Positions 1-37,069 of a DNA stretch of 37,069 bases are shown here, piece by piece. Below the pieces are notes generated by a model that was not told the DNA's origin, ran no database searches, and saw nothing but the letters and a program-made list of their open reading frames with translations. The stretch's first letter is position 1. Every line of letters starts with the position of its first letter. The stretch comes from a virus (taxonomy: Duplodnaviria; Heunggongvirae; Uroviricota; Caudoviricetes): IMG/VR virus record IMGVR_UViG_2568526441_000003. One strand, given 5' to 3'. The translations under genes and the position numbers were made by a program.

Positions 1-1053
1 TTACGGGGTAATGCCAACCGCTGCCGCCACTTTGTCGCCATTTGGTAACGTTGCCAGTGGATTGAAACGGAGCGCCGTTTCCAAATGATCCGGTGCCAGA
101 TGCGCATAACGCATAGTCATTTTTATATCGTGGTGTCCGAGAATTTTTTGTAAGGCCAAGATGTTTCCACCCGACATCATGAAGTGCGCCGCAAACGTAT
201 GGCGCAGAACGTGTGTCAGTTGACCGCGAGGGAGAACGATAGACGTTTTTTCCATCACGGATAAAAATTGAAAATAGCAGTCTGTGAAGAAATTGAACCC
301 ATCGAGCGCCATGATCTCTTCATAAAGCTCTTTACTGATAGGGATGCTTCTGTTTTTCTTCCCCTTCGTTCTCACAAAGGTGATTCGGTACTTGGTGACC
401 TGTGAGCGGGTAAGATTGATTGCTTCTCGCCAACGTGCGCCGGTACTTAGACATATTTTTACCACCAGTGCCAGAATTGGGTTCTGACGTTTGCAGTCAG
501 ACAGTAATTCGATAATCTGCTCATGTGTAAGCCATGCCATTTCCTTTTCTGCGATAGTGAATTTGCGCATCTTCTCTAATGGGTTTGGAAGTGTCCATTC
601 ACCCAGGCGGGAAAGTTCTCTGAAAACGCTGCTTAGATGGCTTTGCTCCAGGTTAACAGTAACTGGGCTTGCTCCTTTCTTCCATTTTTCACTGAAGTAG
701 ATTTCACCAGTAAGGCGTTTATCGCGATAGTGAGCAAACATTTTTGAGGTGAGATCAGTTGCAAGGGGATTTCCCAAGGCGTCAACCATCAACAGCAGCT
801 TGTTGTAGACATGCTGTCCGGCAGTAAGAGATTTGCCATGTAATTTGAACCATAGCTCAACCATATCTTTCAGTGTCCGACGATCCACTGATTCGCCCAG
901 CCAGGGCTTTGCTTCTATTTCCCCCATGGTGTATCGCTCGAAGGCCAGTGCTTCGCCTTTGGTGGCGAATTGTTTACGCACACGGCGTCCGCTACGTCCG
1001 GCGGGGTAACATTCGCAAAGCCATTTCCCTGTGGTTAGTTTTCGTACTGCCAT
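1..1053 (-). CDS. int: tyrosine site-specific integrase (P2/186 Int family)
   Basis: 350-aa ORF; C-terminal catalytic motifs visible in translation (LSTGARWREA, HVLRHTFAAH, MTMRYAHL giving R..H-x-x-R..Y); position at prophage end next to the repressor operon. Stop codon is at window positions 1..3. Confidence 0.9.
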   Translation of the reverse strand: MAVRKLTTGKWLCECYPAGRSGRRVRKQFATKGEALAFERYTMGEIEAKPWLGESVDRRTLKDMVELWFKLHGKSLTAGQHVYNKLLLMVDALGNPLATDLTSKMFAHYRDKRLTGEIYFSEKWKKGASPVTVNLEQSHLSSVFRELSRLGEWTLPNPLEKMRKFTIAEKEMAWLTHEQIIELLSDCKRQNPILALVVKICLSTGARWREAINLTRSQVTKYRITFVRTKGKKNRSIPISKELYEEIMALDGFNFFTDCYFQFLSVMEKTSIVLPRGQLTHVLRHTFAAHFMMSGGNILALQKILGHHDIKMTMRYAHLAPDHLETALRFNPLATLPNGDKVAAAVGITP

Positions 1054-1057
1054 AAAA

Positions 1058-1077
1058 AGCCCTCATATCAGAGGGCT
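1058..1077 (-). terminator. hairpin plus U-tract on minus strand immediately upstream of int start codon
   Basis: Plus-strand aaaaa-gccctc-atatca-gagggc-t: 7-bp stem (1058..1064 with 1071..1077), 6-nt loop; on the minus strand the stem is followed by UUUU and then directly the int AUG (1053). Confidence 0.45.
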
Positions 1078-1135
1078 AAATTTAACTGTATATGTAACCA
1101 GTAATCAATGTGTGATTACTATGAAACATACATTG

Positions 1136-2812
1136 CTAAGCAACATGTAGTTCATCGTTGGCGGAAGTGGCTGCTTTGCGCTCCTGCTCAATAGCTAGAG
1201 ACTCTCTATATTCTTTCGCCTCTGCAAACATTGTCCAGTGGGCGTTGATGTTCATGTCTTCAATAACTGATTTGATTTCTTTTAAATTTACGTTAAAAAA
1301 CTCTTTTCGTGAGTTAATTTTATTGACCTGCTTTTCATTGAAAACTTTATGCAGATGGTTTTCTAATGATGGTGCATCATCACTATAAATCATCGCATGA
1401 ACATCGAACGAAAAAGGAACACTAGCATCTCCGAGTTCACGAACACGATCAAGTGGTTCAAGGCGGCGTGTCATTCCAATTTTATATACATCTTCGCCAA
1501 ATGAACCAATATTACTAATGATATAGACGTGGCCTGATCTGGTTTGTTGGGCCATAGAAATAGCTCGTTGATTTTTAGCTTCAGCTTCTTCATATTTTAA
1601 CTGTAGTTCAGCTATTTTTTGCTCTAAAGCTAAGCGTTGTTCTTCATTTGCAAGCATAAGTTCTTTCGTTGCTTTATTTATAGCTTGCTGAATAGCTTTT
1701 TCTTCTTTTTCAGCTTCTTTTATCGCTTTTTCATATTCTCTACGAGCTCTTTCCTCTTCACGAAGCTGTTCTTTAATCCTTCTTTGCTCTTCTTTTTCTT
1801 CGAGCATAATTTCATTAACTGCTACACCCCATTTTAGCTCGTTGAGTCTTGCCTGAAGATAGATGTCACTTATTTTTGCGGACCTAAAGGCAGAGCCATT
1901 GTAATTTACTAGTTGAAATGCATCTTTTATTTCTTGGGAAAGTTTTCCAAAATTGTTGTGTTTGACTTTTGATAAAATACTGTCAACTCTTCCATTGAAG
2001 GCATCCAAAACAAAGTTTATGGCAGTATTACGCCTGTTTTGCTCAACATAATCACACGAAGCAGCTTTATTAGTTTTTATTAATGATTTGGTTAACTCTC
2101 TGGCTTTTTGTAATTCCTTGCCTGCATCTGTAAATTCATAATTTTCTGCCAGCTCATCAAGTACACTACGGTTAGGGATGATCCATTCATCACCATAACC
2201 TTCAATTTTATTTTTCATTGATTTTGCAACTGCTTCATATTTTTCTGCAAACTCTTTAGCTTCATATGCTGAACCAGCAATCTCCTTTGCTCTTTCTTCT
2301 GCATCAGAAATAATTTTTACTGCATTGTCATTAGCATTTGAGATTAGCTCATTTGCTTTATTATTAGCATTATCAAGACGTTCTTTGGCTTTCAGGCGTG
2401 CATCGCGAGCGTCTTTGGTGATTGCTATAGCTTCGCTATTAGCGTTGCTTATTGTTATCTGAGCTTGATAATTTGCTTCGTTTACTGTTTTAGCCGCCTT
2501 AATTTGGGCTTCATCTATTTTTTGCTTGGCTATTGAGTCCGCATTTTTTATCTTATTCTCTGCATCCATTACTGCGCTGTGCAATTCTTCGTATTGCCAC
2601 AATGGTGCTGCTCGCCCTTCAAGCTCTGATAATTCTCGTACGGTCTGTGCTAGTTTTTCTTGATTTTCAATCAGTTGGTTAGAAAGGGCTATGTTGTTAG
2701 CTGTCAGGTTATCTATAGCCGCTTTGTGTTTTTTACTTTGTTTAAATAATATTACAGCTAGAACAGGGGCGAGAAATGCTAATAAGACTATAACGATGGC
2801 AAATGAATTCAT
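1136..2812 (-). CDS. cargo protein: N-terminal TM helix, long coiled coil, DUF4041-like region, C-terminal T5orf172 (GIY-YIG-like) domain; putative nuclease effector
   Basis: 558-aa ORF. N-terminus FAIVIVLLAFLAPVLAVILF is hydrophobic; long A/K/E/N-rich heptad-like stretches; C-terminal GHVYIISNIGSFGEDVYKIGMTRR matches the T5orf172/GIY-YIG-like signature from memory. Visibly AT-rich versus flanking phage DNA; SD-like AAGGA upstream of ATG; lies 20 nt downstream of cI stop on the same strand. Confidence 0.8.
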   Translation of the reverse strand: MNSFAIVIVLLAFLAPVLAVILFKQSKKHKAAIDNLTANNIALSNQLIENQEKLAQTVRELSELEGRAAPLWQYEELHSAVMDAENKIKNADSIAKQKIDEAQIKAAKTVNEANYQAQITISNANSEAIAITKDARDARLKAKERLDNANNKANELISNANDNAVKIISDAEERAKEIAGSAYEAKEFAEKYEAVAKSMKNKIEGYGDEWIIPNRSVLDELAENYEFTDAGKELQKARELTKSLIKTNKAASCDYVEQNRRNTAINFVLDAFNGRVDSILSKVKHNNFGKLSQEIKDAFQLVNYNGSAFRSAKISDIYLQARLNELKWGVAVNEIMLEEKEEQRRIKEQLREEERARREYEKAIKEAEKEEKAIQQAINKATKELMLANEEQRLALEQKIAELQLKYEEAEAKNQRAISMAQQTRSGHVYIISNIGSFGEDVYKIGMTRRLEPLDRVRELGDASVPFSFDVHAMIYSDDAPSLENHLHKVFNEKQVNKINSRKEFFNVNLKEIKSVIEDMNINAHWTMFAEAKEYRESLAIEQERKAATSANDELHVA

Positions 2813-2832
2813 TTTAAAATCCTTTTACTATA

Positions 2833-3429
2833 TTAATTCGAGACTATTGTACTTCTTATACAAGCAACCACTTCAATATCAGAAAATGCACATTCAAAGC
2901 TATTCTCTGCTGTTGTAATTTTAATCATTCCTTTAGGAAGCCTTGTGATTTTTCGAATGGAATAGGTTCCGTCGATATTGATTAACCAGTTTCCATCAAG
3001 TACTTCAGAAAATTTTTGATCACAAATGTATGTGACGAGTCCATCCTGAATAACAATTGGTGATGAAAGGTTTGCAGGAAGAAATGATGAATCGAAGACA
3101 TATGAACCGTCTTCAATCATTTTGCCTGCGGCAAGGCGAAACTTAACAAGCTCTTCTGTAGCTGCTGTCAGCGAGCTTTGCTTAAGGCCTTGTCCGGTAG
3201 TTAACCATTTGAGGGAGGTTCCTGTTTCAAGAGCACATTGGATTATCCAGTCAGCAGGAAATGTATCCCGCAAATACCTGTTCGCTAGTGTGCTTTTTGA
3301 TACTTCCAAGTGATCAGCTAAAGCCTGTCGTGTCGTAAAGCCATAGGCTTCGACTAATCGCTCAATCGCAGCCTTACCACCTTTATTGGGATTTATTTTG
3401 ATCTCACTTGGGTACTTTGATGTTGACAT
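2833..3429 (-). CDS. cI: CI-type lysogeny repressor (phage 186 CI-like, HTH N-terminal domain)
   Basis: 198-aa ORF divergent from apl/cII; N-terminal segment AIERLVEAYGFTTRQALADHLEVSKSTLANRY resembles an HTH; size and position match 186 CI (about 190 aa) rather than the 99-aa P2 C. Confidence 0.8.
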   Translation of the reverse strand: MSTSKYPSEIKINPNKGGKAAIERLVEAYGFTTRQALADHLEVSKSTLANRYLRDTFPADWIIQCALETGTSLKWLTTGQGLKQSSLTAATEELVKFRLAAGKMIEDGSYVFDSSFLPANLSSPIVIQDGLVTYICDQKFSEVLDGNWLINIDGTYSIRKITRLPKGMIKITTAENSFECAFSDIEVVACIRSTIVSN

Positions 3430-3451
3430 ATCTCTTTTGCGATCCTAGTAT
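3423..3451 (+). promoter_or_regulatory. candidate lytic promoter pR (sigma70 -35 TTGACA, 17-nt spacer, -10 TAGTAT)
   Basis: TTGACA at 3423..3428 and TAGTAT at 3446..3451 read directly; the -35 overlaps the cI start codon (3427..3429 on minus strand); apl lies downstream. Confidence 0.5.
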
Positions 3452-3458
3452 CAGTTTT

Positions 3459-3474
3459 GTACCCAATTGGGTAC
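3459..3474. promoter_or_regulatory. perfect 16-bp palindrome GTACCCAATTGGGTAC at the predicted pR transcription start; candidate repressor operator
   Basis: Sequence is its own reverse complement; sits 8 nt downstream of the -10; a GGGTAC half-site recurs at about 3410..3415. Confidence 0.45.
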
Positions 3475-3524
3475 TTGTCACGATTACTACAGGCTCACCA
3501 CAAGCCAATAGGAGATGTTGCATC

Positions 3525-3746
3525 ATGACCCCTAACATTTCAATAACTCTGAATACGCCACACGTCACAATCGAGCGTTATAGCGAACTTACTGGTCTTT
3601 CAATCGACACAATCAACGATATGTTGGCGGATGGTCGCATTCCTCGGCATCGTCTTCGTAAAGACAAGAAAAGAGAAAAGGTAATGATCAACCTTGCTGC
3701 TCTTACCGTTGATGCACTTACTGATTGCAATGTTGTATTCAACTAG
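3525..3746 (+). CDS. apl: Apl/Cox-like excisionase and switch regulator (small HTH protein)
   Basis: 73-aa ORF from ATG 3525 (AGGAG 10 nt upstream), first gene rightward of the switch; the longer 3408 start in the ORF track would overlap cI and pR. Confidence 0.7.
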
Positions 3747-3778
3747 TTCCATTTTGGGATACATCAGAGGTGTCGACC

Positions 3779-4288
3779 ATGTTTGATTACCAAGTTTCCA
3801 AACATCCACATTTTGATGAAGCCTGTCGTGCATTCGCACTGCGCCACAATCTGGTGCAACTGGCAGAACGTGCAGGTATGAATGTGCAGATTCTGCGGAA
3901 CAAACTGAACCCAGCTCAACCTCATTTATTAACCGCACCAGAAATTTGGTTGCTTACCGATCTGACTGAAGATTCAACGCTGGTAGATGGTTTTCTGGCA
4001 CAGATTCACTGCCTGCCATGTGTACCGATTAATGAGGTAGCAAAAGAGAAACTGCCGCATTACGTCATGAGTGCAACCGCAGAGATCGGACGTGTTGCTG
4101 CAGGTGCGGTATCTGGCGATGTAAAAACCAGTGCAGGTCGTCGTGATGCTATCAGCAGCATTAACTCAGTAACACGACTGATGGCGCTGGCTGCTGTTTC
4201 ATTGCAGGCCCGTTTACAGGCTAACCCTGCGATGGCGAGTGCAGTTGATACCGTGACTGGCTTCGGTGCTTCATTCGGTTTGCTGTGA
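3779..4288 (+). CDS. cII: CII-like lysogeny establishment activator (phage 186 CII family)
   Basis: 169 aa from ATG 3779 ([12 protein letters not shown]...); length and sequence closely resemble 186 CII as I recall it; position directly after apl. Confidence 0.75.
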
Positions 4289-8747: not shown

Positions 8748-8936
8748 ATGCAGGACTATTTTTTGGAGTCTTTGAAGCTCCAGCGCATTGATTTTTTTCT
8801 TAAGCTTGTAGCGGCTAGTGAGTGTAGTGATGAAGAGAAGGGGCTGGCTTTGCAGTGGGTTTCTGAACTAACAGATGAACTCATGGCAAAAATCAGAACC
8901 CACGAATACAACCGCTCAATGGATGTCATCAGTTGA
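8748..8936 (+). CDS. small hypothetical protein, first gene of LexA-controlled module (possible Tum N-terminal counterpart)
   Basis: 62-aa ORF from ATG 8748 with GGAGGA SD 5 nt upstream; immediately downstream of the LexA box. Confidence 0.55.
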   Translation: MQDYFLESLKLQRIDFFLKLVAASECSDEEKGLALQWVSELTDELMAKIRTHEYNRSMDVIS

Positions 8937-8946
8937 GGTGACTTTT

Positions 8947-9180
8947 ATGCGCATTGAAATAATGATCGATAAAGAGCAGAAGATTAGCCAGTCTATCCTG
9001 GACGCCCTTGAATCCGAGCTTTACCGCAATCTGCGCCCCCTGTATCCAAAAACGGTAATTCGTATCCGCAAAGGTAGCTCTAACGGTGTGGAACTGACCG
9101 GACTGCAACTGGACGAAGAAAGGAAGCAAGTGATGAAAATTATGCAGAAGGTGTGGGAAGACGATAGCTGGCTGCATTAA
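8947..9180 (+). CDS. DinI-family protein (Tum-like SOS-inducible antirepressor module)
   Basis: 77 aa, MRIEIMIDKEQ...VWEDDSWLH; begins and ends like E. coli DinI (MRIEV...W...W) as recalled; own SD-like GAGGTG upstream; 186 Tum is known to carry a DinI-like C-terminal domain. Confidence 0.7.
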   Translation: MRIEIMIDKEQKISQSILDALESELYRNLRPLYPKTVIRIRKGSSNGVELTGLQLDEERKQVMKIMQKVWEDDSWLH

Positions 9181-9354
9181 GAAACGTTGCCCCCAGTAGG
9201 GTTCATTCTGATGGGGGCTAGTTTGAGCAACGAGTGAAACGAGGCGTTAGGTGGGAGGCCATTTTGATAAGTTATCACCCACTTTATACCAATAACAGAA
9301 CTGCGTAATAACTATTTACCTCGGGGGGAGATGTGAGCCATACAAATTTCAGTA

Positions 9355-10413
9355 TTAATTTTCAATTCCCTCCATTTTACAATGAGTTTTTTCCCAGAAC
9401 TGTAATACAACAGGACTAGCCCACTCTGGCATCAGTGCGTTATTTAAAAAACTGAAAACATCATGAGACGCATCAGCATTTTTTCTAAGGAATTTCCAGC
9501 CTTTTCTAGTATTTATCTCAACAATACCTAACCCACCATCATTAAACATATGCATCTTGAATTCAGGATTGTTTACACCTAGAGATTTTATTTCTTTTAT
9601 GTATGGACTATCTTCATCCATAAATATTTTCTCTATGTGCTTAGCACAATGATATATTTTATTTCGATAAGTTGATACGCTCACAGCGGTACGCGCTGTT
9701 GTTATTCCCATTCCTAATGGGGCATATGCTTTTCCATCCATCACTACGGGCAGATTTATTCCATTTTTTCTTAAGTTTGCAATATCTGAATCTGTAGTTG
9801 GATGAATACAAGCTAAGCCTGAAATACCTTTCATTTCAAATATTTCTGCTGCTTCTGGCCAGTTGCGTATGAATGTTTCTACCAAATCTCTTTGAGAAAA
9901 AAGATTTGGTTCTATGTTTTTATCATGATGTTTTATATCAATAAAAAGCACAGCGTTTGAGTACACCTTCAGGAATAATACCCACTCAGCACGATCTGAG
10001 TATTTTTTACTTGAACTTACTGGATTTAATGGCAGATGGAGGTGATGAATCCCCCAATCAGCCCATAGGTTATCCGTTCTTTTCGTCGCCTTTTTACCGC
10101 TTGTGTCATTGAATAATGTTAATGTTTTACTCTGATAAGGATTTACATCACCACCAGTAGTAAACAACATCTCGATTCTCTGCAATCCAACCCTTGCGCC
10201 ATCGTGAATATTTTCAGGAAATCGATCTGATTTTAAAATTATTCGTTTTTGTGGAGCAATGTAGCGTAAAAGAAAATCACACCACCTCAGTAGAGGATCG
10301 TGAAGATTTGAGTGCCCGGATTCATCATATAATAACCCAAATGCTTGAATTCCCTTCTCTGAAATTTCGTCAATATCTTTGATTAGATCAATATTTTTTC
10401 GTGCGTCCAACAT
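9355..10413 (-). CDS. uncharacterized 352-aa cargo protein at the tin/old-equivalent variable locus; candidate defense or exclusion gene
   Basis: Long ORF on the strand opposite the early operon, visibly AT-rich, GGAG SD 6 nt upstream of ATG; I recognise no family. Confidence 0.65.
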   Translation of the reverse strand: MLDARKNIDLIKDIDEISEKGIQAFGLLYDESGHSNLHDPLLRWCDFLLRYIAPQKRIILKSDRFPENIHDGARVGLQRIEMLFTTGGDVNPYQSKTLTLFNDTSGKKATKRTDNLWADWGIHHLHLPLNPVSSSKKYSDRAEWVLFLKVYSNAVLFIDIKHHDKNIEPNLFSQRDLVETFIRNWPEAAEIFEMKGISGLACIHPTTDSDIANLRKNGINLPVVMDGKAYAPLGMGITTARTAVSVSTYRNKIYHCAKHIEKIFMDEDSPYIKEIKSLGVNNPEFKMHMFNDGGLGIVEINTRKGWKFLRKNADASHDVFSFLNNALMPEWASPVVLQFWEKTHCKMEGIEN

Positions 10414-10807
10414 ACTAACTCCGTTTAAATATAATTTTTTAGTATTTCAGTTAATTAATATCTATACGCCGTTATAGCTGAATTTTCCGGTGATTTCAGG
10501 GCACATTAACCAATTTAGATAATACTATAGTAATGGTTGGGCTGATTTTTCAAGAACAAAAGTAATTTTCAAGCTTTGTAACATGTTGATTTTCCACTTT
10601 TCGCTCAAGCGGGCTTTCATCTTTGCAAGCCCATATGTTCGTTTTTCAAGCGATTATTCAGATACGTTAACTTCCCATGGCAGTGCATAACTATGCTGCA
10701 TGAAATCGCATGATCGATCGAGGATCGTCTATGCTTAGACCAGCCAGAAATGGCGGGCTTTTGCTCATGTCATGCAGCTGCATGAAAACCACTGCATAAA
10801 GTGGGCA

Positions 10808-10826
10808 GGCGTGGCGGGGATACGAG
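10808..10826. other. candidate cos site (cohesive-end region)
   Basis: GGCGTGGCGGGGA at 10808..10820 matches the first 13 nt of the 19-nt cohesive end of 186/P2 as recalled from memory (GGCG[T/A]GGCGGGGAAAGCA-); GC-rich islet inside AT-rich DNA; flanked by a direct repeat GCTGCATGAAA (10696..10706 and 10777..10787) and a 14-bp palindrome CATGCAGCTGCATG (10771..10784). Confidence 0.45.
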
Positions 10827-10946
10827 CGCGCGCTAGAAACGTTTACTGATATTCTTGTAGTACATTGCATTTTTCTTTTTTTATGTCATATCATTAGCCA
10901 TTTGAATAGGACATTATTATCAATTTGTTGTCTCTGAGGATAAGTT

Positions 10947-12728
10947 ATGAATTTTGATGCAACACCACTAAATATAAAAAACATTCTATCTGTAAAACAA
11001 AGATATGTTATTCCTCGTAATCAACGTGAGTTTAGTTGGGAAAAGCTTCAGCTTGAAGAGTTATGGCAAGATATTGTCAGAAACATAAGGTTGAATGAAG
11101 ATGGACAGAACTTGGAGTGTTCAGAATATTTTATAGGGACTATTGTTCTTTCTGGAGCAGATAGTGATGATGTATTAGAAGTGGTTGATGGACAACAACG
11201 ATTTTCAGTTATTACTATATTGCTTTCATTAATATCGCGTAAATTGCGTTCCTTAGGGCAAGATTCATTAGCGGATGATATATTTAAAACATATATCGTT
11301 ACTGTGAGTCCTACATTTAGCAGAAGCCAATTAGCTTCAAATGGTGAGACATTTATTGAAAAATTAGCAAAAAATAGCGATAGAACATATTTTAAGTTAA
11401 AATATCAAGATCGCGAAGAGCATCAAGTTGATGAATCTTGTGAAGAGGATGTACGTATAAGTTATGCAGGAATTTTTCTTTCTAGAAAACTAGGGAGGAA
11501 ATCACTCTGTTCTGCATTGTTGCGAGATGGTGCAAAACATTATAATAACCAAGATTATATATTTTGTTTGACTGCTGTATATAGAATGATTACCAATTAT
11601 TTGAAGTTGGTAAAAATATCTGTAGGTAAGGAGGATGATGCTTATGATATTTTTGAAGTGTTGAATGCTCGAGGGATAAACTTAAGTTCAATTGATTTGA
11701 TAAAGAATAAAGTATTCCAAACTTGCACTCAAACATATCCGGTAGATATTGCAAAAACAAAATGGGATTATATCGTTACTCAAATTGAGTCTAGGGATAG
11801 TAATAGCACTATTGCTGATTATATTAGAACGTGGTGGCTTTCTAAGTATAATTATATTGGAGAAGATCAACTTTATCGTGCTTTTAAACGTGAGATTCAA
11901 GATGAGAATACTTTATTGTCATCAGCATCATTTCTGAACGAATTATATGATGATGTTGAATTATACTGTAAAATAATAGCGCCAAATACAGATGACTGGC
12001 CTCAACCTGATCAGCGTGAAATTTACAACTCGTTAAAAGCATTCGAGATTTTTAATGTGAGTATTCCTCGACCATTTGTACTCTCATTACTTAGAAAACG
12101 TAAAGAGAAACCGAGAGCCCTTACACAATCAATGCTGATAGAATGTTTGAAGTCCTTAGAGTCATTTCACTTTAAGTTTAATGCAGTATGTCGTCTAAGA
12201 CCATCTGGAATCGATGCAAAATATTCTGTATTAGCAGTAAGAATGAATAAGGCATTAAATAAAAGAGATGTTGAGGGTGTTATTAATGACGCGTTAGATT
12301 ATTTTACACAGAAAGGACCTTCAGAAAATATATTCAAACAAGCATTTTCAAAGAATATTGTTTATACAAATAAAAAGTCTGGGCAAAGGAAGTTGATTGT
12401 TTATATTTTTGACAAATTGGAACGTATCAGACGAGGGACGCGAGAGTTAAAAATGGATATAGTTTCTTTGGAACACATATCATCTCAAAGCAAAACTAAC
12501 GAGTCAGTCGTGGGTATGATTGGTAATTTACTACCACTCTGTTTTTCACTTAATGAAGATTGCAAAAATTATGAGTTGCACAAAAAAATAGAATCTTATA
12601 AAAAATCTGATTTAAAATTAGTTACAGAGTTTGTTAGTGAGTCAGAAGCAAGAGAACATAAATGGGATGATTCATTAATAAAAGAAAGAACAGATGGCTT
12701 GGCGTTAGAAACGTTTGCTAAAATATAA
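10947..12728 (+). CDS. DUF262/DUF1524 (GmrSD-family) putative type IV modification-dependent restriction endonuclease
   Basis: 593 aa; N-terminal ParB-like DUF262 signature (NQREFSWEKLQLEELWQDI ... VVDGQQR) and C-terminal His-Me-finger-like segment (LEHISSQSK); GAGGA SD upstream; visibly AT-rich. Confidence 0.75.
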   Translation: MNFDATPLNIKNILSVKQRYVIPRNQREFSWEKLQLEELWQDIVRNIRLNEDGQNLECSEYFIGTIVLSGADSDDVLEVVDGQQRFSVITILLSLISRKLRSLGQDSLADDIFKTYIVTVSPTFSRSQLASNGETFIEKLAKNSDRTYFKLKYQDREEHQVDESCEEDVRISYAGIFLSRKLGRKSLCSALLRDGAKHYNNQDYIFCLTAVYRMITNYLKLVKISVGKEDDAYDIFEVLNARGINLSSIDLIKNKVFQTCTQTYPVDIAKTKWDYIVTQIESRDSNSTIADYIRTWWLSKYNYIGEDQLYRAFKREIQDENTLLSSASFLNELYDDVELYCKIIAPNTDDWPQPDQREIYNSLKAFEIFNVSIPRPFVLSLLRKRKEKPRALTQSMLIECLKSLESFHFKFNAVCRLRPSGIDAKYSVLAVRMNKALNKRDVEGVINDALDYFTQKGPSENIFKQAFSKNIVYTNKKSGQRKLIVYIFDKLERIRRGTRELKMDIVSLEHISSQSKTNESVVGMIGNLLPLCFSLNEDCKNYELHKKIESYKKSDLKLVTEFVSESEAREHKWDDSLIKERTDGLALETFAKI

Positions 12729-34449: not shown

Positions 34450-36135
34450 TTATCCTAATCCTGGCCATACCATGACGATGATTGTCCCTGCTAGCGTCAG
34501 CAGGACGTTGGCGATTGCATAGGTGCCCGCATAGCCCAGCGCCGGGATGTTACTGCGAGCTGTATCACTGATGATCTCCATTGCCGGCGCGCAGGTGCGT
34601 GCGCCCATCATTGCGCCGAACAACAGTGCGCGGTTCATTCGCAATACATAAGCACCGAACAAGAAGCAGATAACCACTGGCACCAGACTGACAATCAATC
34701 CGGCAATCAACATTTGACCGCCAATCGCGCCCAGGCCGTTATTAATACCGCTACCGGCGCTCAGACCAACGCCTGCCATAAACACCATCAAGCCGAACTC
34801 TTTCACCATGCTTAATGCACCTTGCGGAATGTAACCGAAGGTCGGGTGGTTAGCACGCATAAAGCCCAGCATAATTCCGGCGAATAACAACCCGGCAGCG
34901 TTCCCCATGCCGAAACTGAATGTGCTGAACTGGAAGGTGATCATCCCGATCATCAGCCCAATAACAAAGAAGGCGCAGAATGCCAGCAAGTCAGTGACCT
35001 GGCTGTGAATCGAGATAAAGCCGATGCGATCGGCGATGGTTTTTACGCGACGGGCATCGCCGCTGACTTGTAAAACGTCACCTTTGTTAAGCACGACGTT
35101 GTCATCAATCGGCATCTCAATCTGGCTACGAATGACGCGGTTAAGGAAGCAACCGTGATCGGTCAACTTCAGTTGTGCGAGACGTTTGCCTACAGCGTTA
35201 TGGTTTTTAACGACCACTTCTTCAGTGACGATACGCATGTCGAGAAGGTCACGATCGAAAACTTCTTTGCCATTACGGAAACTGGGATCGAGTCGGGCGT
35301 GGGCGTCGGGGTAGCCTACCAACGCTATTTCATCGCCCATTTGTAGCACGGCATCACCGTCTGGATTTGCCAGAATCCCGTTACGCCGAATACGTTCAAT
35401 GTAACAGCCAGTTTGTCGATAAATACCCAGTTCACGCAGATTTTTGCCGTCGGTCCAGGCCACCAGCTCCGGGCCGACGCGGTAGGCGCGGATCACCGGT
35501 AAATAAACCTTACGGTTGGCATCAGTGTCCAGGCCACGTTCGCGGGCGATTTGCTGGGCGCTGGTCTGTAAGTCCTGATGCTGCAATTTCGGCAAGTAAC
35601 GCGCACCAACAATCAAACTCACCAGACCGATTAAATAGGTTAAGGCATATCCGAGGCTCAGATTATCCAGCGCCAGTGAGAGCTGCCTGCTTTCCATACC
35701 GGAATGACGCAGTGTATCGCCAGCACCGACCAAAACCGGTGTTGACGTCATAGAGCCTGCTAACATACCGGCCGTCAGGCCAATATCCCAGCCAAACAGC
35801 TTACCTAACCCTAAGGCGATGACCAGCGCACTGCCAACCATCACCAGTGCTAACATTAGGTAATTTTTCCCATCGCGAAAAAAAATGGAAAAAAAGTTCG
35901 GTCCGGCTTCGACCCCGACGCAGAAAATAAACAGCATAAAGCCAAGATTAAGCGCGTCGGTGTTAATGCTGAAATGTTGTTGGCCTAATAACAGCGATAC
36001 GACTAAAACGCCAATGGAATTACCCAGTTGGATCGAACCAAGTCGTAATTTCCCGAGACATAGCCCAAGCGCGAGGACCACAAATAATAACAGAATGTAA
36101 TTCCCATTTAACAATTCGGCGACGTTTATATTCAC
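34450..36135 (-). CDS. ybjL: putative transport protein YbjL (AAE-family, two TrkA-C domains); host gene
   Basis: 561-aa membrane protein recognised as E. coli YbjL; adjacent ybjM and grxA match the K-12 gene order. Confidence 0.85.
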
Positions 36136-36404
36136 GGAGGCTAACTTCTTGTTTACTAGTAAGCTGTTGAAAGAAATGGTAATTTACGATAATGTTTTTT
36201 ACCAGAATTCAGGGCGCAGATTCATTCAGCGCACCTAAACGATAGTAAAGTAACAATATATTTTACTAGTGTAATCACATTAGGTATCAACGGCTATATG
36301 AATTGCGTTGGCCTATATTAGCATGGAATGCGAAGCGGCTTTATCTTACTGAACGCCACACTGGCGAAAAATGTGTTCGATAGACGCAGTGTCAGGAGGA
36401 ACGA

Positions 36405-36782
36405 GTGAAACATAAACAACGTTGGGCGGGGGCAATCTGCTGTTTTGTCCTCTTCATTGTGGTGTGCCTTTTTCTGGCGACGCACATGAAAGGCGCTTTT
36501 CGGGCTGCCGGGCATCCTGAAATCGGCTTGCTGTTTTTCATTCTTCCTGGAGCAGTTGCCAGCTTCTTTTCACAGCGTAGAGAAGTCCTGAAACCTCTGT
36601 TTGGCGCAATGCTGGCGGCACCCTGTTCAATGCTTATTATGCGGCTGTTTTTTTCACCGACGCGCTCATTCTGGCAAGAGCTGGCATGGTTATTAAGTGC
36701 GGTGTTCTGGTGTGCGCTGGGGGCACTGTGTTTCTTATTTATCAGTAGTTTGTTTAAACCACAGCACAGAAAAAATCAATAA
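36405..36782 (+). CDS. ybjM: inner membrane protein YbjM; host gene
   Basis: 125-aa hydrophobic protein; synteny between ybjL and grxA. Confidence 0.8.
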   Translation: MKHKQRWAGAICCFVLFIVVCLFLATHMKGAFRAAGHPEIGLLFFILPGAVASFFSQRREVLKPLFGAMLAAPCSMLIMRLFFSPTRSFWQELAWLLSAVFWCALGALCFLFISSLFKPQHRKNQ

Positions 36783-36783
36783 A

Positions 36784-36800
36784 GCCCTCAACGCGAGGGC
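36784..36800. terminator. shared hairpin terminator between convergent ybjM and grxA
   Basis: GCCCTC-AACGC-GAGGGC; on the minus strand it is followed by a T-rich tract (plus-strand AAAAAATCAATAAA upstream). Confidence 0.6.
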
Positions 36801-36811
36801 TTGTCAGACGA

Positions 36812-37069
36812 TCAGGCGTCCAGATTCTCTTTCACCCATGCAGCAAAATCGGTATAGCCGCCGATATGTTGCTGATCGACAAAAATCTGCGGCACGGTTT
36901 CTACGGGTTTACCTGCCTTTTGTTGTAGATCTTCTTTAGTGATCCCTTCCGCACGAATATCTACATACTGATACTGAAAATCATCGCGTTCATTGCTCAA
37001 TTTCTCAGCCAGATCTTTTGCACGCACACAGTAAGGGCAACCCGGACGACCAAAAATAACGGTTTGCAT
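36812..37069 (-). CDS. grxA: glutaredoxin 1
   Basis: 85 aa with CPYC active site (MQTVIFGRPGCPYCVRAK...); start codon is the last three bases of the window. Confidence 0.9.
   Translation of the reverse strand: MQTVIFGRPGCPYCVRAKDLAEKLSNERDDFQYQYVDIRAEGITKEDLQQKAGKPVETVPQIFVDQQHIGGYTDFAAWVKENLDA

Follow-up and report, generated by a model that had tools for sequence, protein, structure and literature searches.

The closest described system is SNIPE, or PD-lambda-1, from E. coli ECOR26 (RCP76574.1; Vassallo et al. 2022, PMC9519451; Saxton et al., Nature 2026, PMC13190303). This nuclease, anchored in the membrane, cuts phage DNA as it enters, and its membrane topology was shown by experiment (PMC13190303). 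Its DUF4041 domain has two binding partners, DNA and the tape-measure protein, and both the N-terminal region, which varies across SNIPE homologues, and a DUF4041 surface have been implicated in the association with ManYZ and the siphovirus tape-measure protein (PMC13190303). The E414A mutation abolishes defense, and removal of the transmembrane (TM) helix makes SNIPE highly toxic, with cleavage of the chromosome (PMC13190303). Defense by SNIPE, studied with the native promoter of the gene, is direct and nonabortive, with cells surviving a high multiplicity of infection (PMC13190303).

Published work already covers the SNIPE family and its mechanism, as well as cargo slots between repressor and integrase in P2-related prophages. 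For K139-like Vibrio prophages related to P2, a cI-integrase defense hotspot has been described (Rousset et al. 2022, PMC9122126). An "integrase-primase" hotspot has also been reported for P2-like prophages, with 8% of P2-encoded systems located between integrase and primase (NAR 2026, PMC13586616). Here, we analyzed a gene located in a 37,069-nucleotide stretch of viral DNA (IMGVR_UViG_2568526441_000003), referred to as the window.

A 558-residue gene between cI and int

The gene and its surroundings are composed of the following features.

1..1053, minus strand: tyrosine integrase int, 350 aa, anchor of the cargo slot (Pfam Int_N and Phage_integrase)
1136..2812, minus strand: SNIPE/PD-lambda-1 family coding sequence, 558 aa, with an ATG start and its stop codon at 1136-1138 (open reading frame listing)
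2813..2832, minus strand: 20-nt spacer separating cI from the gene and containing an AAGGA ribosome-binding site (sequence)
2833..3429, minus strand: cI repressor, 198 aa (Pfam Phage_CI_repr and Phage_CI_C)

The gene starts 20 nt past the end of cI, and int starts 82 nt downstream of the gene. Within the spacer, TATAGTAAAAGGATTTTAAA, the AAGGA Shine-Dalgarno sequence lies 7 nt ahead of the ATG. At 36.9%, the GC content of the gene is below that of int (47.7%), cI (40.0%), and the whole window (49.8%). A preliminary description of this DNA had reported an AT-rich gene 20 nt after the cI stop, between cI and int and on the same strand, and the base composition bears this out, as do the open reading frame listing and Pfam, which agree on the arrangement. 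It had also stated that P2 and 186 have the repressor next to int; indeed, cI and int of 186 abut, and the 115-nt gap between C and int of P2 is gene-free.

The open reading frame at 1136-2812 is no chance frame, since the identical 558-aa protein is found on at least 1000 contigs and dN/dS is only 0.04 relative to a 97%-identical orthologue. Purifying selection acts on the gene, and the dN/dS of its C-terminal half is 0.01.

Assignment to the SNIPE family

The matches of the 558-aa protein in PADLOC were limited to PD-Lambda-1, PDC-S57, and a marginal one to the LmuB coiled coil. The PD-Lambda-1 model PDLC03976 aligned residues 114 to 550 with positions 35 to 481 of a 491-position profile (E=2.3e-120), and the second PD-Lambda-1 model, PDLC03977, matched as well (E=1.5e-116); together, the two cover residues 105 to 551. 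The protein also matched phrog_1847 (E=7e-133). As a SNIPE comparator, standing in for RCP76574.1, we used a 500-aa RefSeq protein that agrees with the published SNIPE in length, in Pfam coordinates, and in 9/9 of the residues named in the SNIPE paper. BLASTP against this SNIPE-type protein gave 50% identity over 293 residues (265 to 555; E=6e-77), and in RefSeq, copies 100% identical to the window protein are named "SNIPE associated domain-containing protein." Profile and pairwise alignments both place the gene in this family, and it very probably encodes a SNIPE (PD-λ-1) family protein, that is, a membrane-anchored nuclease cutting incoming phage DNA. The view that no named, characterized defense system could be assigned is thus overturned, because the protein matches PD-Lambda-1 in PADLOC, is 50% identical to SNIPE, and has retained the catalytic glutamate.

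Domain architecture and comparison with SNIPE of ECOR26

The coding sequence was divided into the following parts.

2744..2803, minus strand: N-terminal TM helix, codons 4-23, FAIVIVLLAFLAPVLAVILF (Kyte-Doolittle; predicted N-out, C-in)
2021..2743, minus strand: divergent helical N-terminal "adapter," codons 24-264, exceeding that of SNIPE by about 70 aa
1847..2014, minus strand: DUF4041 (Pfam PF13250, now named "SNIPE"), codons 267-322 (Pfam, 46.6 bits, cutoff 27)
1544..1822, minus strand: long charged linker helix from DUF4041 to the nuclease, codons 331-423, 48% identical to SNIPE
1253..1534, minus strand: T5orf172/MUG113 (GIY-YIG-type) nuclease domain, codons 427-520, with the motifs GHVYIISN and VYKIGMTRR
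1361-1363, minus strand: codon of E484, aligned with the SNIPE catalytic E414 in local and global alignments

In a 19-residue Kyte-Doolittle window, hydrophobicity reached 3.18 at residues 4 to 22, while every other segment scored 1.6 or less. The helix is directly followed by the basic cluster KQSKKHK, and the resulting +5 on the C-terminal side fits the positive-inside rule. An N-terminal membrane anchor is predicted, with the bulk of the protein in the cytoplasm; the TM layout of SNIPE is alike, with a hydrophobic peak at residues 6 to 24 followed by KRIKK. For T5orf172 (residues 427 to 520), the Pfam score was 65 bits against a cutoff of 20, and for MUG113 (residues 443 to 520) it was 72.7 bits; these two and DUF4041 all exceed their cutoffs. 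Kyte-Doolittle and Pfam together confirm the layout proposed in the preliminary description, namely, a TM helix, a long helical region, and a C-terminal T5orf172/GIY-YIG-like domain, with DUF4041 lying ahead of the latter. A search of the PDB by sequence with the 558-aa protein gave no match at E values up to 1. An AlphaFold2 model, built from 28 orthologues 82 to 99% identical to the window protein, was of low confidence (mean pLDDT, 50.5; pTM, 0.22), and only its secondary-structure layout was therefore used. In this layout, the linker forms two predicted helices (316 to 387 and 390 to 425) with a break at 388 and 389, the pLDDT being about 73 to 78 over residues 361 to 410.

A different identity is given in public records; phage records ON470620 and OM835953 in GenBank carry the annotation "chromosome segregation ATPase," and weak NCBIfam matches to DivIVA_Wag31 (22 bits) and to SMC (SMC_prok_A, 15.5 bits) point in the same direction. 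These scores, however, are far under the respective cutoffs of 260 and 729 bits and reflect coiled-coil sequence only, and neither Pfam nor NCBIfam detected an ATPase domain in the 558-aa protein. A structural or cell cycle role, SMC-like or DivIVA-like, is virtually out of the question, and the SMC, DivIVA, and V-ATPase E identities were rejected as coiled-coil noise devoid of any ATPase motif or domain.

SNIPE and the 558-aa protein are both encoded by a single gene and have in common a TM helix, a helical region, DUF4041, a linker helix, and the GIY-YIG/T5orf172 domain. The protein is longer than SNIPE (558 versus 500 aa), and its two domains are both shifted by exactly +70 residues (DUF4041 lies at 197 to 252 in SNIPE). 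Conservation is highest in the nuclease domain, where residues 424 to 530 are 67% identical to SNIPE and the catalytic glutamate E414 corresponds to E484. In contrast, identity falls to 26% in the DUF4041 core and, in a global alignment, to 17 to 19% in the N-terminal half, which has about 70 extra helical residues past the TM helix. The positions at which SNIPE gains function also differ, E223 being replaced by S292, W257 by K327, K305 by Q375, and T319 by N389. K327 occupies the position at which SNIPE needs the W257R change for gain of function.

We asked whether the N-terminal region is a module common to other effectors by using its 264 residues as the query against a representative library; clustered at 50%, the relatives numbered 324. 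Ten of the hits (443 to 682 aa) were scanned; seven had DUF4041 and T5orf172 and two had DUF4041 alone. The sole exception, a thioredoxin/NHL protein, was regarded as spurious or as a fusion. From residue 105 to 114 or so onward, the adapter still aligns to the PD-Lambda-1 and phrog_1847 profiles. As judged by alignment, the N-terminal divergence is exactly the kind of variation described across SNIPE homologues. With identity to SNIPE of only about 18% over residues 1 to 264 and 26% in the DUF4041 core, the ManYZ and tape-measure association and the phage range of SNIPE cannot be transferred to this protein.

That the diverged parts are precisely the DUF4041 and N-terminal regions could also be reconciled with superinfection exclusion, in which the protein would bind the tape-measure protein or the entry channel and sterically block injection at the inner membrane, the nuclease being dispensable or degenerate. 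A membrane anchor and a place behind the repressor are shared with classical prophage exclusion genes, and membrane-acting exclusion systems are listed as neighbors of the SNIPE mechanism (PMC13190303). Nevertheless, the best conserved part of the protein is the nuclease domain, at 67% identity to SNIPE and nearly invariant among orthologues; the catalytic glutamate and the GIY/YIG motifs are intact, the C-terminal half has the dN/dS of 0.01 given above, and SNIPE defense is lost in E414A (PMC13190303). We thus consider pure exclusion very unlikely and favor a nuclease of the SNIPE family.

A variable cargo slot and a linked cI allele

The gene was found in 164 to 165 of 5,426 complete E. coli genomes, about 1,650 of which have a related integrase, and close prophage relatives at the same attachment site carry an open reading frame of 63, 71, or 314 aa in its place. 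The gene is not present in all relatives and is cargo of a 186-like (Peduoviridae) prophage rather than a backbone gene, a point that the preliminary description had left to be checked. Orthologues 81 to 97% identical occur in other species representatives of the Enterobacteriaceae. With the integrase as the query, 77 species loci were fetched. The slot measured 398 to 3307 nt, and the 32 occupied slots held approximately 29 cargo clusters, among them a number of known defense genes; the contents included SNIPE-like genes (7 loci), AbiU, PDC-S20, PDC-M11A, PDC-M18A/B, and HEC-01A/B; many cargo genes of the slot within the same integrase clade have no recognizable domain. In the group of integrases at 48 to 56% identity, the gap between cI and int was only 8 to 33 nt in 18/19 loci in which cI was resolved. 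On these comparisons, the cargo slot is restricted to one integrase clade. The gene is the sole occupant of the slot in the window, in Klebsiella, in Citrobacter, and at other loci, and three loci have an extra, nonconserved gene after it. The SNIPE family match and the variable slot uphold the earlier proposal of a prophage-borne protection gene in a lysogenic cI-int arrangement.

The accompanying cI allele (at least 80% of the query covered) was present in 163/5,426 E. coli genomes, compared to 165 for the gene, and all 7/7 SNIPE-bearing species loci carry cI at an identity of 82 to 96%. T5orf172/GIY-YIG domains occur in phage homing endonucleases, and such near-perfect linkage with one cI allele might be expected of a selfish endonuclease spreading the cI-cargo module among related prophages. 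The linkage has a trivial explanation, however, since the 20-nt spacer leaves no room for recombination. [quoted passage not shown] Here, in contrast, a TM helix and about 400 helical residues precede the nuclease, which lies at the C terminus; this anchor and 400-aa stalk are foreign to homing endonucleases, and the free-standing homing layout does not apply. The near-full-length PD-Lambda-1 profile match and the proven defense by the homologue (PMC13190303) explain the gene better, making the homing reading scarcely credible.

Transcription and the int leader

Three elements flanking the gene and cI were considered.

1054..1135, minus strand: int leader, conserved, with a TTGATT-17-TTAAAT motif, then a hairpin, then five U abutting the int ATG
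1058-1077, minus strand: hairpin AGCCCTC-TGATAT-GAGGGCT in the int leader, a terminator-like site
3423..3451, plus strand: pR-like early promoter TTGACA-17-TAGTAT, oriented away from cI (consensus scan)

A consensus scan of the minus strand at 3430-3720 (at least 8/12) found no pL-type lysogenic promoter upstream of cI. No promoter or terminator was predicted by scanning between cI and the gene, where the 20-nt spacer has no room for a promoter, and the 20-nt spacing is identical in Klebsiella and Citrobacter prophages. We infer that the gene is cotranscribed with cI from the lysogenic promoter, on the basis of the shared strand, the 20-nt gap, the lack of a predicted site in between, and synteny with 186, where pR and the pL/pE lysogenic operon are annotated. 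As the gene is directly behind cI, a lysogen would probably make the nuclease together with the repressor.

The int leader folds with an energy of -32.1 kcal/mol (z = -5.5); because of indels, the MAFFT alignment of its hairpin is unreliable. Relatives with other cargo regain homology directly after the stop codon of the gene, and the leader marks the downstream boundary of the cargo slot. Given the terminator-like hairpin between the gene and int, what had been called a cI-int operon may instead be a cI-cargo unit from which int is partly insulated. An Rfam scan of 800-3900 gave a RyhB match on the int leader, at 28.5 bits versus a threshold of 55, which was taken as chance.

Proposed mechanism

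By analogy with SNIPE, the TM anchor would keep the nuclease off the chromosome. Upon injection of a phage genome, DUF4041 would engage both the tape-measure protein and the DNA, which the C-terminal GIY-YIG-type nuclease would cut on entry; the cell would survive and the DNA of the resident prophage would be spared. Membrane localization, cleavage at injection, and a siphovirus bias of the 558-aa protein are all extrapolated from the SNIPE paper.

The same nuclease could in principle act as an abortive-infection toxin, released or activated on infection, degrading host and phage DNA alike and killing the cell. The toxicity and chromosome cutting of TM-less SNIPE (PMC13190303) are in line with such a role, as is the presence in the slot elsewhere of abortive-infection-type genes such as AbiU. 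Yet the characterized homologue defends directly and its cells survive at a high multiplicity of infection (PMC13190303), and the sequence gives no hint of a cleavable anchor. This makes a suicidal function highly improbable, and we retain direct cleavage of incoming DNA by a SNIPE family nuclease.

The unrelated, longer adapter and the different DUF4041 surface could direct the protein to an inner-membrane entry route and a set of phages other than ManYZ and lambda, and the fixed place 20 nt past one cI allele, with a conserved terminator-like int leader following, could couple it to lysogeny. That the 558-aa subfamily is a functionally distinct SNIPE variant and, in addition, a repressor-coupled, lysogeny-only defense switched off on induction is possible, but we regard this combined proposal as rather doubtful.

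Significance and comparison with known systems

As a discovery the gene carries little weight, because standard tools already label it (PADLOC, current Pfam, and RefSeq PGAP), the mechanism was published in 2026, and cargo slots are documented. The analysis does correct the "chromosome segregation ATPase" annotation of phage records and identifies an abundant natural SNIPE variant (165/5,426 complete E. coli genomes), whose diverged adapter and DUF4041 surface offer a test case for the published idea of regions setting phage specificity. The domain-less cargo genes of the cI-int slot are candidates for new systems.

Among membrane systems, Zorya and Kiwa resemble SNIPE in being located at the inner membrane and acting on or near incoming phage DNA (PMC13190303). 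Unlike the 558-aa gene, however, they are multigene systems of unrelated proteins, and PADLOC gave no sequence relationship of the 558-aa protein to either. The SNIPE-type copy examined here is likewise prophage-borne and AT-rich, but its neighbors are ren on one side and the nin region on the other, in a lambdoid prophage, whereas the 558-aa gene lies behind cI in a 186-like myovirus prophage.

As for location, P2 old, tin, and fun and the gpA-portal hotspot are likewise fixed-slot defense cargo of P2-like prophages, although they occupy a different slot and encode proteins unrelated to the 558-aa gene. The gpA-portal slot of the window itself is filled with PD-T4-7 and a GmrSD-type enzyme, giving this prophage three defense systems across two slots. 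The K139-type hotspot belongs to the Vibrionaceae, while the slot described here is enterobacterial. Finally, the description of the integrase-primase hotspot is only coarse (PMC13586616), whereas the slot here is resolved to an interval bounded by the cI stop codon and the int leader.

A SNIPE-family gene between cI and int

The gene under study is a 558-aa ORF, found exactly where the preliminary description had placed it, between the repressor and integrase genes:

1136-2812, minus strand: 558-aa ORF, ATG start
2833-3429, same strand, upstream of the gene: CI repressor, 198 aa (Pfam Phage_CI_repr and Phage_CI_C)
1-1053, downstream of the gene: tyrosine integrase, 350 aa (ORF and Pfam)

The gap from the cI stop to the gene's ATG measured 20 nt, as that description had it, and contains an AAGGA ribosome-binding site; 82 nt separate the gene's stop from the int ATG. 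The window itself begins exactly at the int stop codon. The gene is AT-rich, as had been stated, with 36.9% GC compared to 49.8% for the window, and the repressor-int adjacency claimed for relatives also held, since cI and int abut in 186 and C and int of P2 are 115 nt apart with no gene between.

The protein has a single strongly hydrophobic segment, residues 4 to 23, followed by KQSKKHK, and Pfam detected DUF4041 (residues 267 to 322), T5orf172 (residues 427 to 520), and MUG113, all exceeding curated cutoffs, which bears out both the N-terminal TM helix and the T5orf172 end proposed earlier. AlphaFold2, run on an alignment of 28 close orthologues, gave a low-confidence model (pLDDT 50.5) with predicted helices at residues 3 to 64, 72 to 203, and 316 to 425 and a predicted strand/helix alternation at residues 433 to 530; a PDB sequence search with the protein gave no match. 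Compared to a 97%-identical orthologue, dN/dS was 0.04 for the gene, 0.08 for its N-terminal half, and 0.01 for its C-terminal half; synonymous sites were saturated in the comparison with the Klebsiella and Citrobacter orthologues. The exact protein is present on at least 1000 public contigs. At 50% clustering, 324 relatives of its N-terminal region were found, and 7 of the 10 longer ones scanned harbor DUF4041 and T5orf172, indicating that this region is a subfamily trait rather than a shared module.

Two PADLOC PD-Lambda-1 models matched residues 105 to 551 (E = 2.3e-120 and 1.5e-116), and PHROG 1847 matched the protein at 7e-133. In RefSeq, copies with 100% identity bear the name "SNIPE associated domain-containing protein," and PF13250 is named "SNIPE" in current Pfam. 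PD-lambda-1 was discovered by functional selection in ECOR26 (PMC9519451) and has since been renamed SNIPE and characterized (PMC13190303). The preliminary description could assign no named, characterized defense system, a question that the profile libraries answer. Because of these profiles and names, together with the homologue gradient described below, the gene is already known at the system level: it is PD-lambda-1/SNIPE, occupying a kind of prophage cargo slot that has been documented before.

The label "chromosome segregation ATPase," under which the gene is annotated in two phage records (GenBank ON470620.1, 27790-29466; OM835953.1), was rejected, as no ATPase domain exists; it stems from coiled-coil similarity and should become SNIPE/PD-lambda-1 family nuclease.

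The gene is prophage cargo

The 558-aa gene is cargo and not backbone, in line with its earlier reading: a related integrase occurs in about 1,650 complete E. coli genomes, only 164 to 165 of which carry the gene. The accompanying cI allele was found in 163 complete E. coli genomes, showing near-complete linkage of gene and allele. Prophages that share this attachment site beside rcdA and have 89 to 97% identical integrases carry a 63-, 71-, or 314-aa ORF at this position, along with other cI alleles. Among these relatives, alignment homology restarts directly after the stop codon of the 558-aa gene, and the 82-nt int leader thus belongs to the backbone. The order cI (198 aa)-20 nt-558 aa-82 nt-int recurs with identical spacing in Klebsiella and Citrobacter prophages, as it does in the deposited phages vB_EcoM-813R9 and KP12, whose copies bear the ATPase misannotation.

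The prophage is inserted between rcdA and ybjL, like five related E. coli loci (L001-L005), and the right end of the window, 34450-37069, is host chromosome:

34450-36135, minus strand: YbjL-like permease (Asp-Al_Ex/TrkA_C), host flank
36405-36782, plus strand: YbjM, host flank

At 8875-12728, this prophage has the classical P2 gpA-portal hotspot:

8875-9180, plus strand: DinI-like gene
9355-10413, minus strand: PD-T4-7 homologue (PADLOC, E = 4e-144)
10947-12728, plus strand: GmrSD-type type IV restriction enzyme (PADLOC HEC-06/Orf5; Pfam GmrSD_N and GmrSD_C)

With the SNIPE-like gene, PD-T4-7, and GmrSD, one prophage thus carries three defense systems in two slots.

The cI-int slot in related prophages

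Cargo slots of the cI-int type are not new (Rousset et al., PMC9122126), and in a 2026 survey of 1,511 P2-like prophages, 8% of defense systems lie between integrase and primase (PMC13586616). Our own survey covered 77 loci from species representatives, retrieved using the window integrase. The 186-type integrase clade (48 to 56% identical; 19 cI-resolved loci) is without the slot, the cI-int gap being 8 to 33 nt in 18 of 19. Where the integrase is 62% identical or more, every locus has a gap of 398 to 2,967 nt, and seven loci with 55 to 58% integrases are also occupied (580 to 3,307 nt).

About 29 cargo clusters are spread across the 32 occupied slots (species loci, L018-L090), all but one of the ORFs lying on the cI/int strand. 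A SNIPE-like gene occupies 7 of the 32; other cargo includes several known or candidate defense genes, namely AbiU, PDC-S20 (PifA-like), PDC-M11A, PDC-M18A/B, HEC-01A/B, and a Swt1-like HEPN protein. Strong PADLOC matches were obtained for 8 of the 20 cargo proteins scanned, and a Pfam search of 10 of the remaining proteins gave no match in 8. At least eight slot proteins of 201 to 493 aa, with no PADLOC or Pfam match, are thus candidate new systems, and part of the residual interest lies in the slot's many unannotated genes. In two species, the SNIPE-like gene shares its slot with a 309-aa ORF lying directly after it (L023:4982-5911 and L024:4981-5910), which PADLOC and Pfam also leave unmatched. 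A third species has this ORF without the SNIPE-like gene (L088:4932-5855); the ORF may be cargo in its own right or may act as an accessory.

Expression and the int leader

Co-transcription of the gene with cI is plausible, as we infer from the shared strand, from the 20-nt gap, in which a site scan detected no promoter-like or terminator-like site, and from the annotated lysogenic operon of phage 186, where pL and pE drive cI-int; a consensus scan upstream of cI, however, detected no pL-type promoter here. A promoter-like site was also located:

3423-3451: pR-like promoter, TTGACA-17-TAGTAT

Just downstream of it, within about 3405-3480, lies a perfect 16-bp palindrome, GTACCCAATTGGGTAC, and an additional GGGTAC half-site is found near 3409, within the cI start; both probably serve as operators for this immunity type.

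The int leader (1054-1135, minus strand) is conserved regardless of cargo in the window, L002-L005, and about 20 survey loci. It contains a sigma-70-like motif, TTGAC(C)-17-TTAAAT, and then a stable hairpin, with the int Shine-Dalgarno sequence forming its 3' arm. In most cases a U-tract comes next and directly adjoins the int ATG, but L035, L038, L072, and L088 lack it. Folding was calculated at -32.1 kcal/mol (z = -5.5), and the stem occurs in four or more sequence variants, each keeping its pairing potential. Rfam returned only a sub-threshold RyhB match (28.5 bits versus 55). The leader could act as a terminator that shields int from transcription through cI and the cargo, could sequester the ribosome-binding site for translational control, or could do both.

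Proposed function and comparison with SNIPE

SNIPE spans the inner membrane once, with a periplasmic N-terminus and the remainder cytoplasmic; DUF4041 is the part that binds DNA and touches the tape-measure proteins of siphoviruses, and the GIY-YIG nuclease (catalytic E414) cleaves phage DNA during injection. The protein associates with ManYZ and is toxic without the TM helix (PMC13190303). Protection extends to lambda-like phages and many further siphoviruses, not to the myoviruses or podoviruses tested, and a resident prophage is not attacked (PMC13190303). By analogy, the lysogen would very probably produce a nuclease, anchored in the membrane, that cleaves phage DNA at the point of injection, sparing the chromosome and resident prophage, with protection probably biased toward siphoviruses. 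Exclusion of superinfecting phage by steric means is improbable, and action as an abortive-infection toxin is slightly more so; a homing-type selfish endonuclease is very improbable, and an SMC/DivIVA-like structural role is the least credible of all. Against all four, the most constrained region of the protein is the nuclease, the SNIPE homologue's phenotype is direct defense, and the protein has no ATPase domain. The preliminary observation is confirmed, and its interpretation is supported.

For comparison, RefSeq WP_000195116.1 (500 aa, L006) stood in for RCP76574.1, which has 500 aa with DUF4041 at 197 to 252 and T5orf172 at 357 to 448 (PMC9519451). It agrees with the published length and Pfam coordinates, has 9 of 9 residues named for SNIPE (E223, N250, L253, W257, E264, K305, I308, T319, and E414), and has its gene flanked by ren and the nin region in a lambdoid prophage. 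Residues 265 to 555 of the window protein are 50% identical to it (E = 6e-77), with E484 aligned to the catalytic E414. Identity is 67% in the nuclease, 48% in the linker helix, 26% in the DUF4041 core, and 17 to 19% in the N-terminal 264 residues, a region 70 aa longer than that of SNIPE, with family-profile alignment persisting from about residue 105 onward. The same gradient was reported for about 474 SNIPE homologues: the nuclease is conserved, DUF4041 has diverged moderately, and the N-terminal region, read as a specificity adapter, is hypervariable in sequence and variable in length (PMC13190303). At the sites of Bas14-enhancing mutations, E223, K305, and T319 correspond to S292, Q375, and N389, and W257 to K327, basic like the gain-of-function W257R. 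Transfer of the anchor, catalytic residue, and domain order from SNIPE is well supported; the ManYZ partnership and exact phage range are not transferable, since both depend on the regions that have diverged. The other part of the residual interest is that this abundant, diverged variant would lend itself well to a natural test of the idea that the adapter sets specificity.
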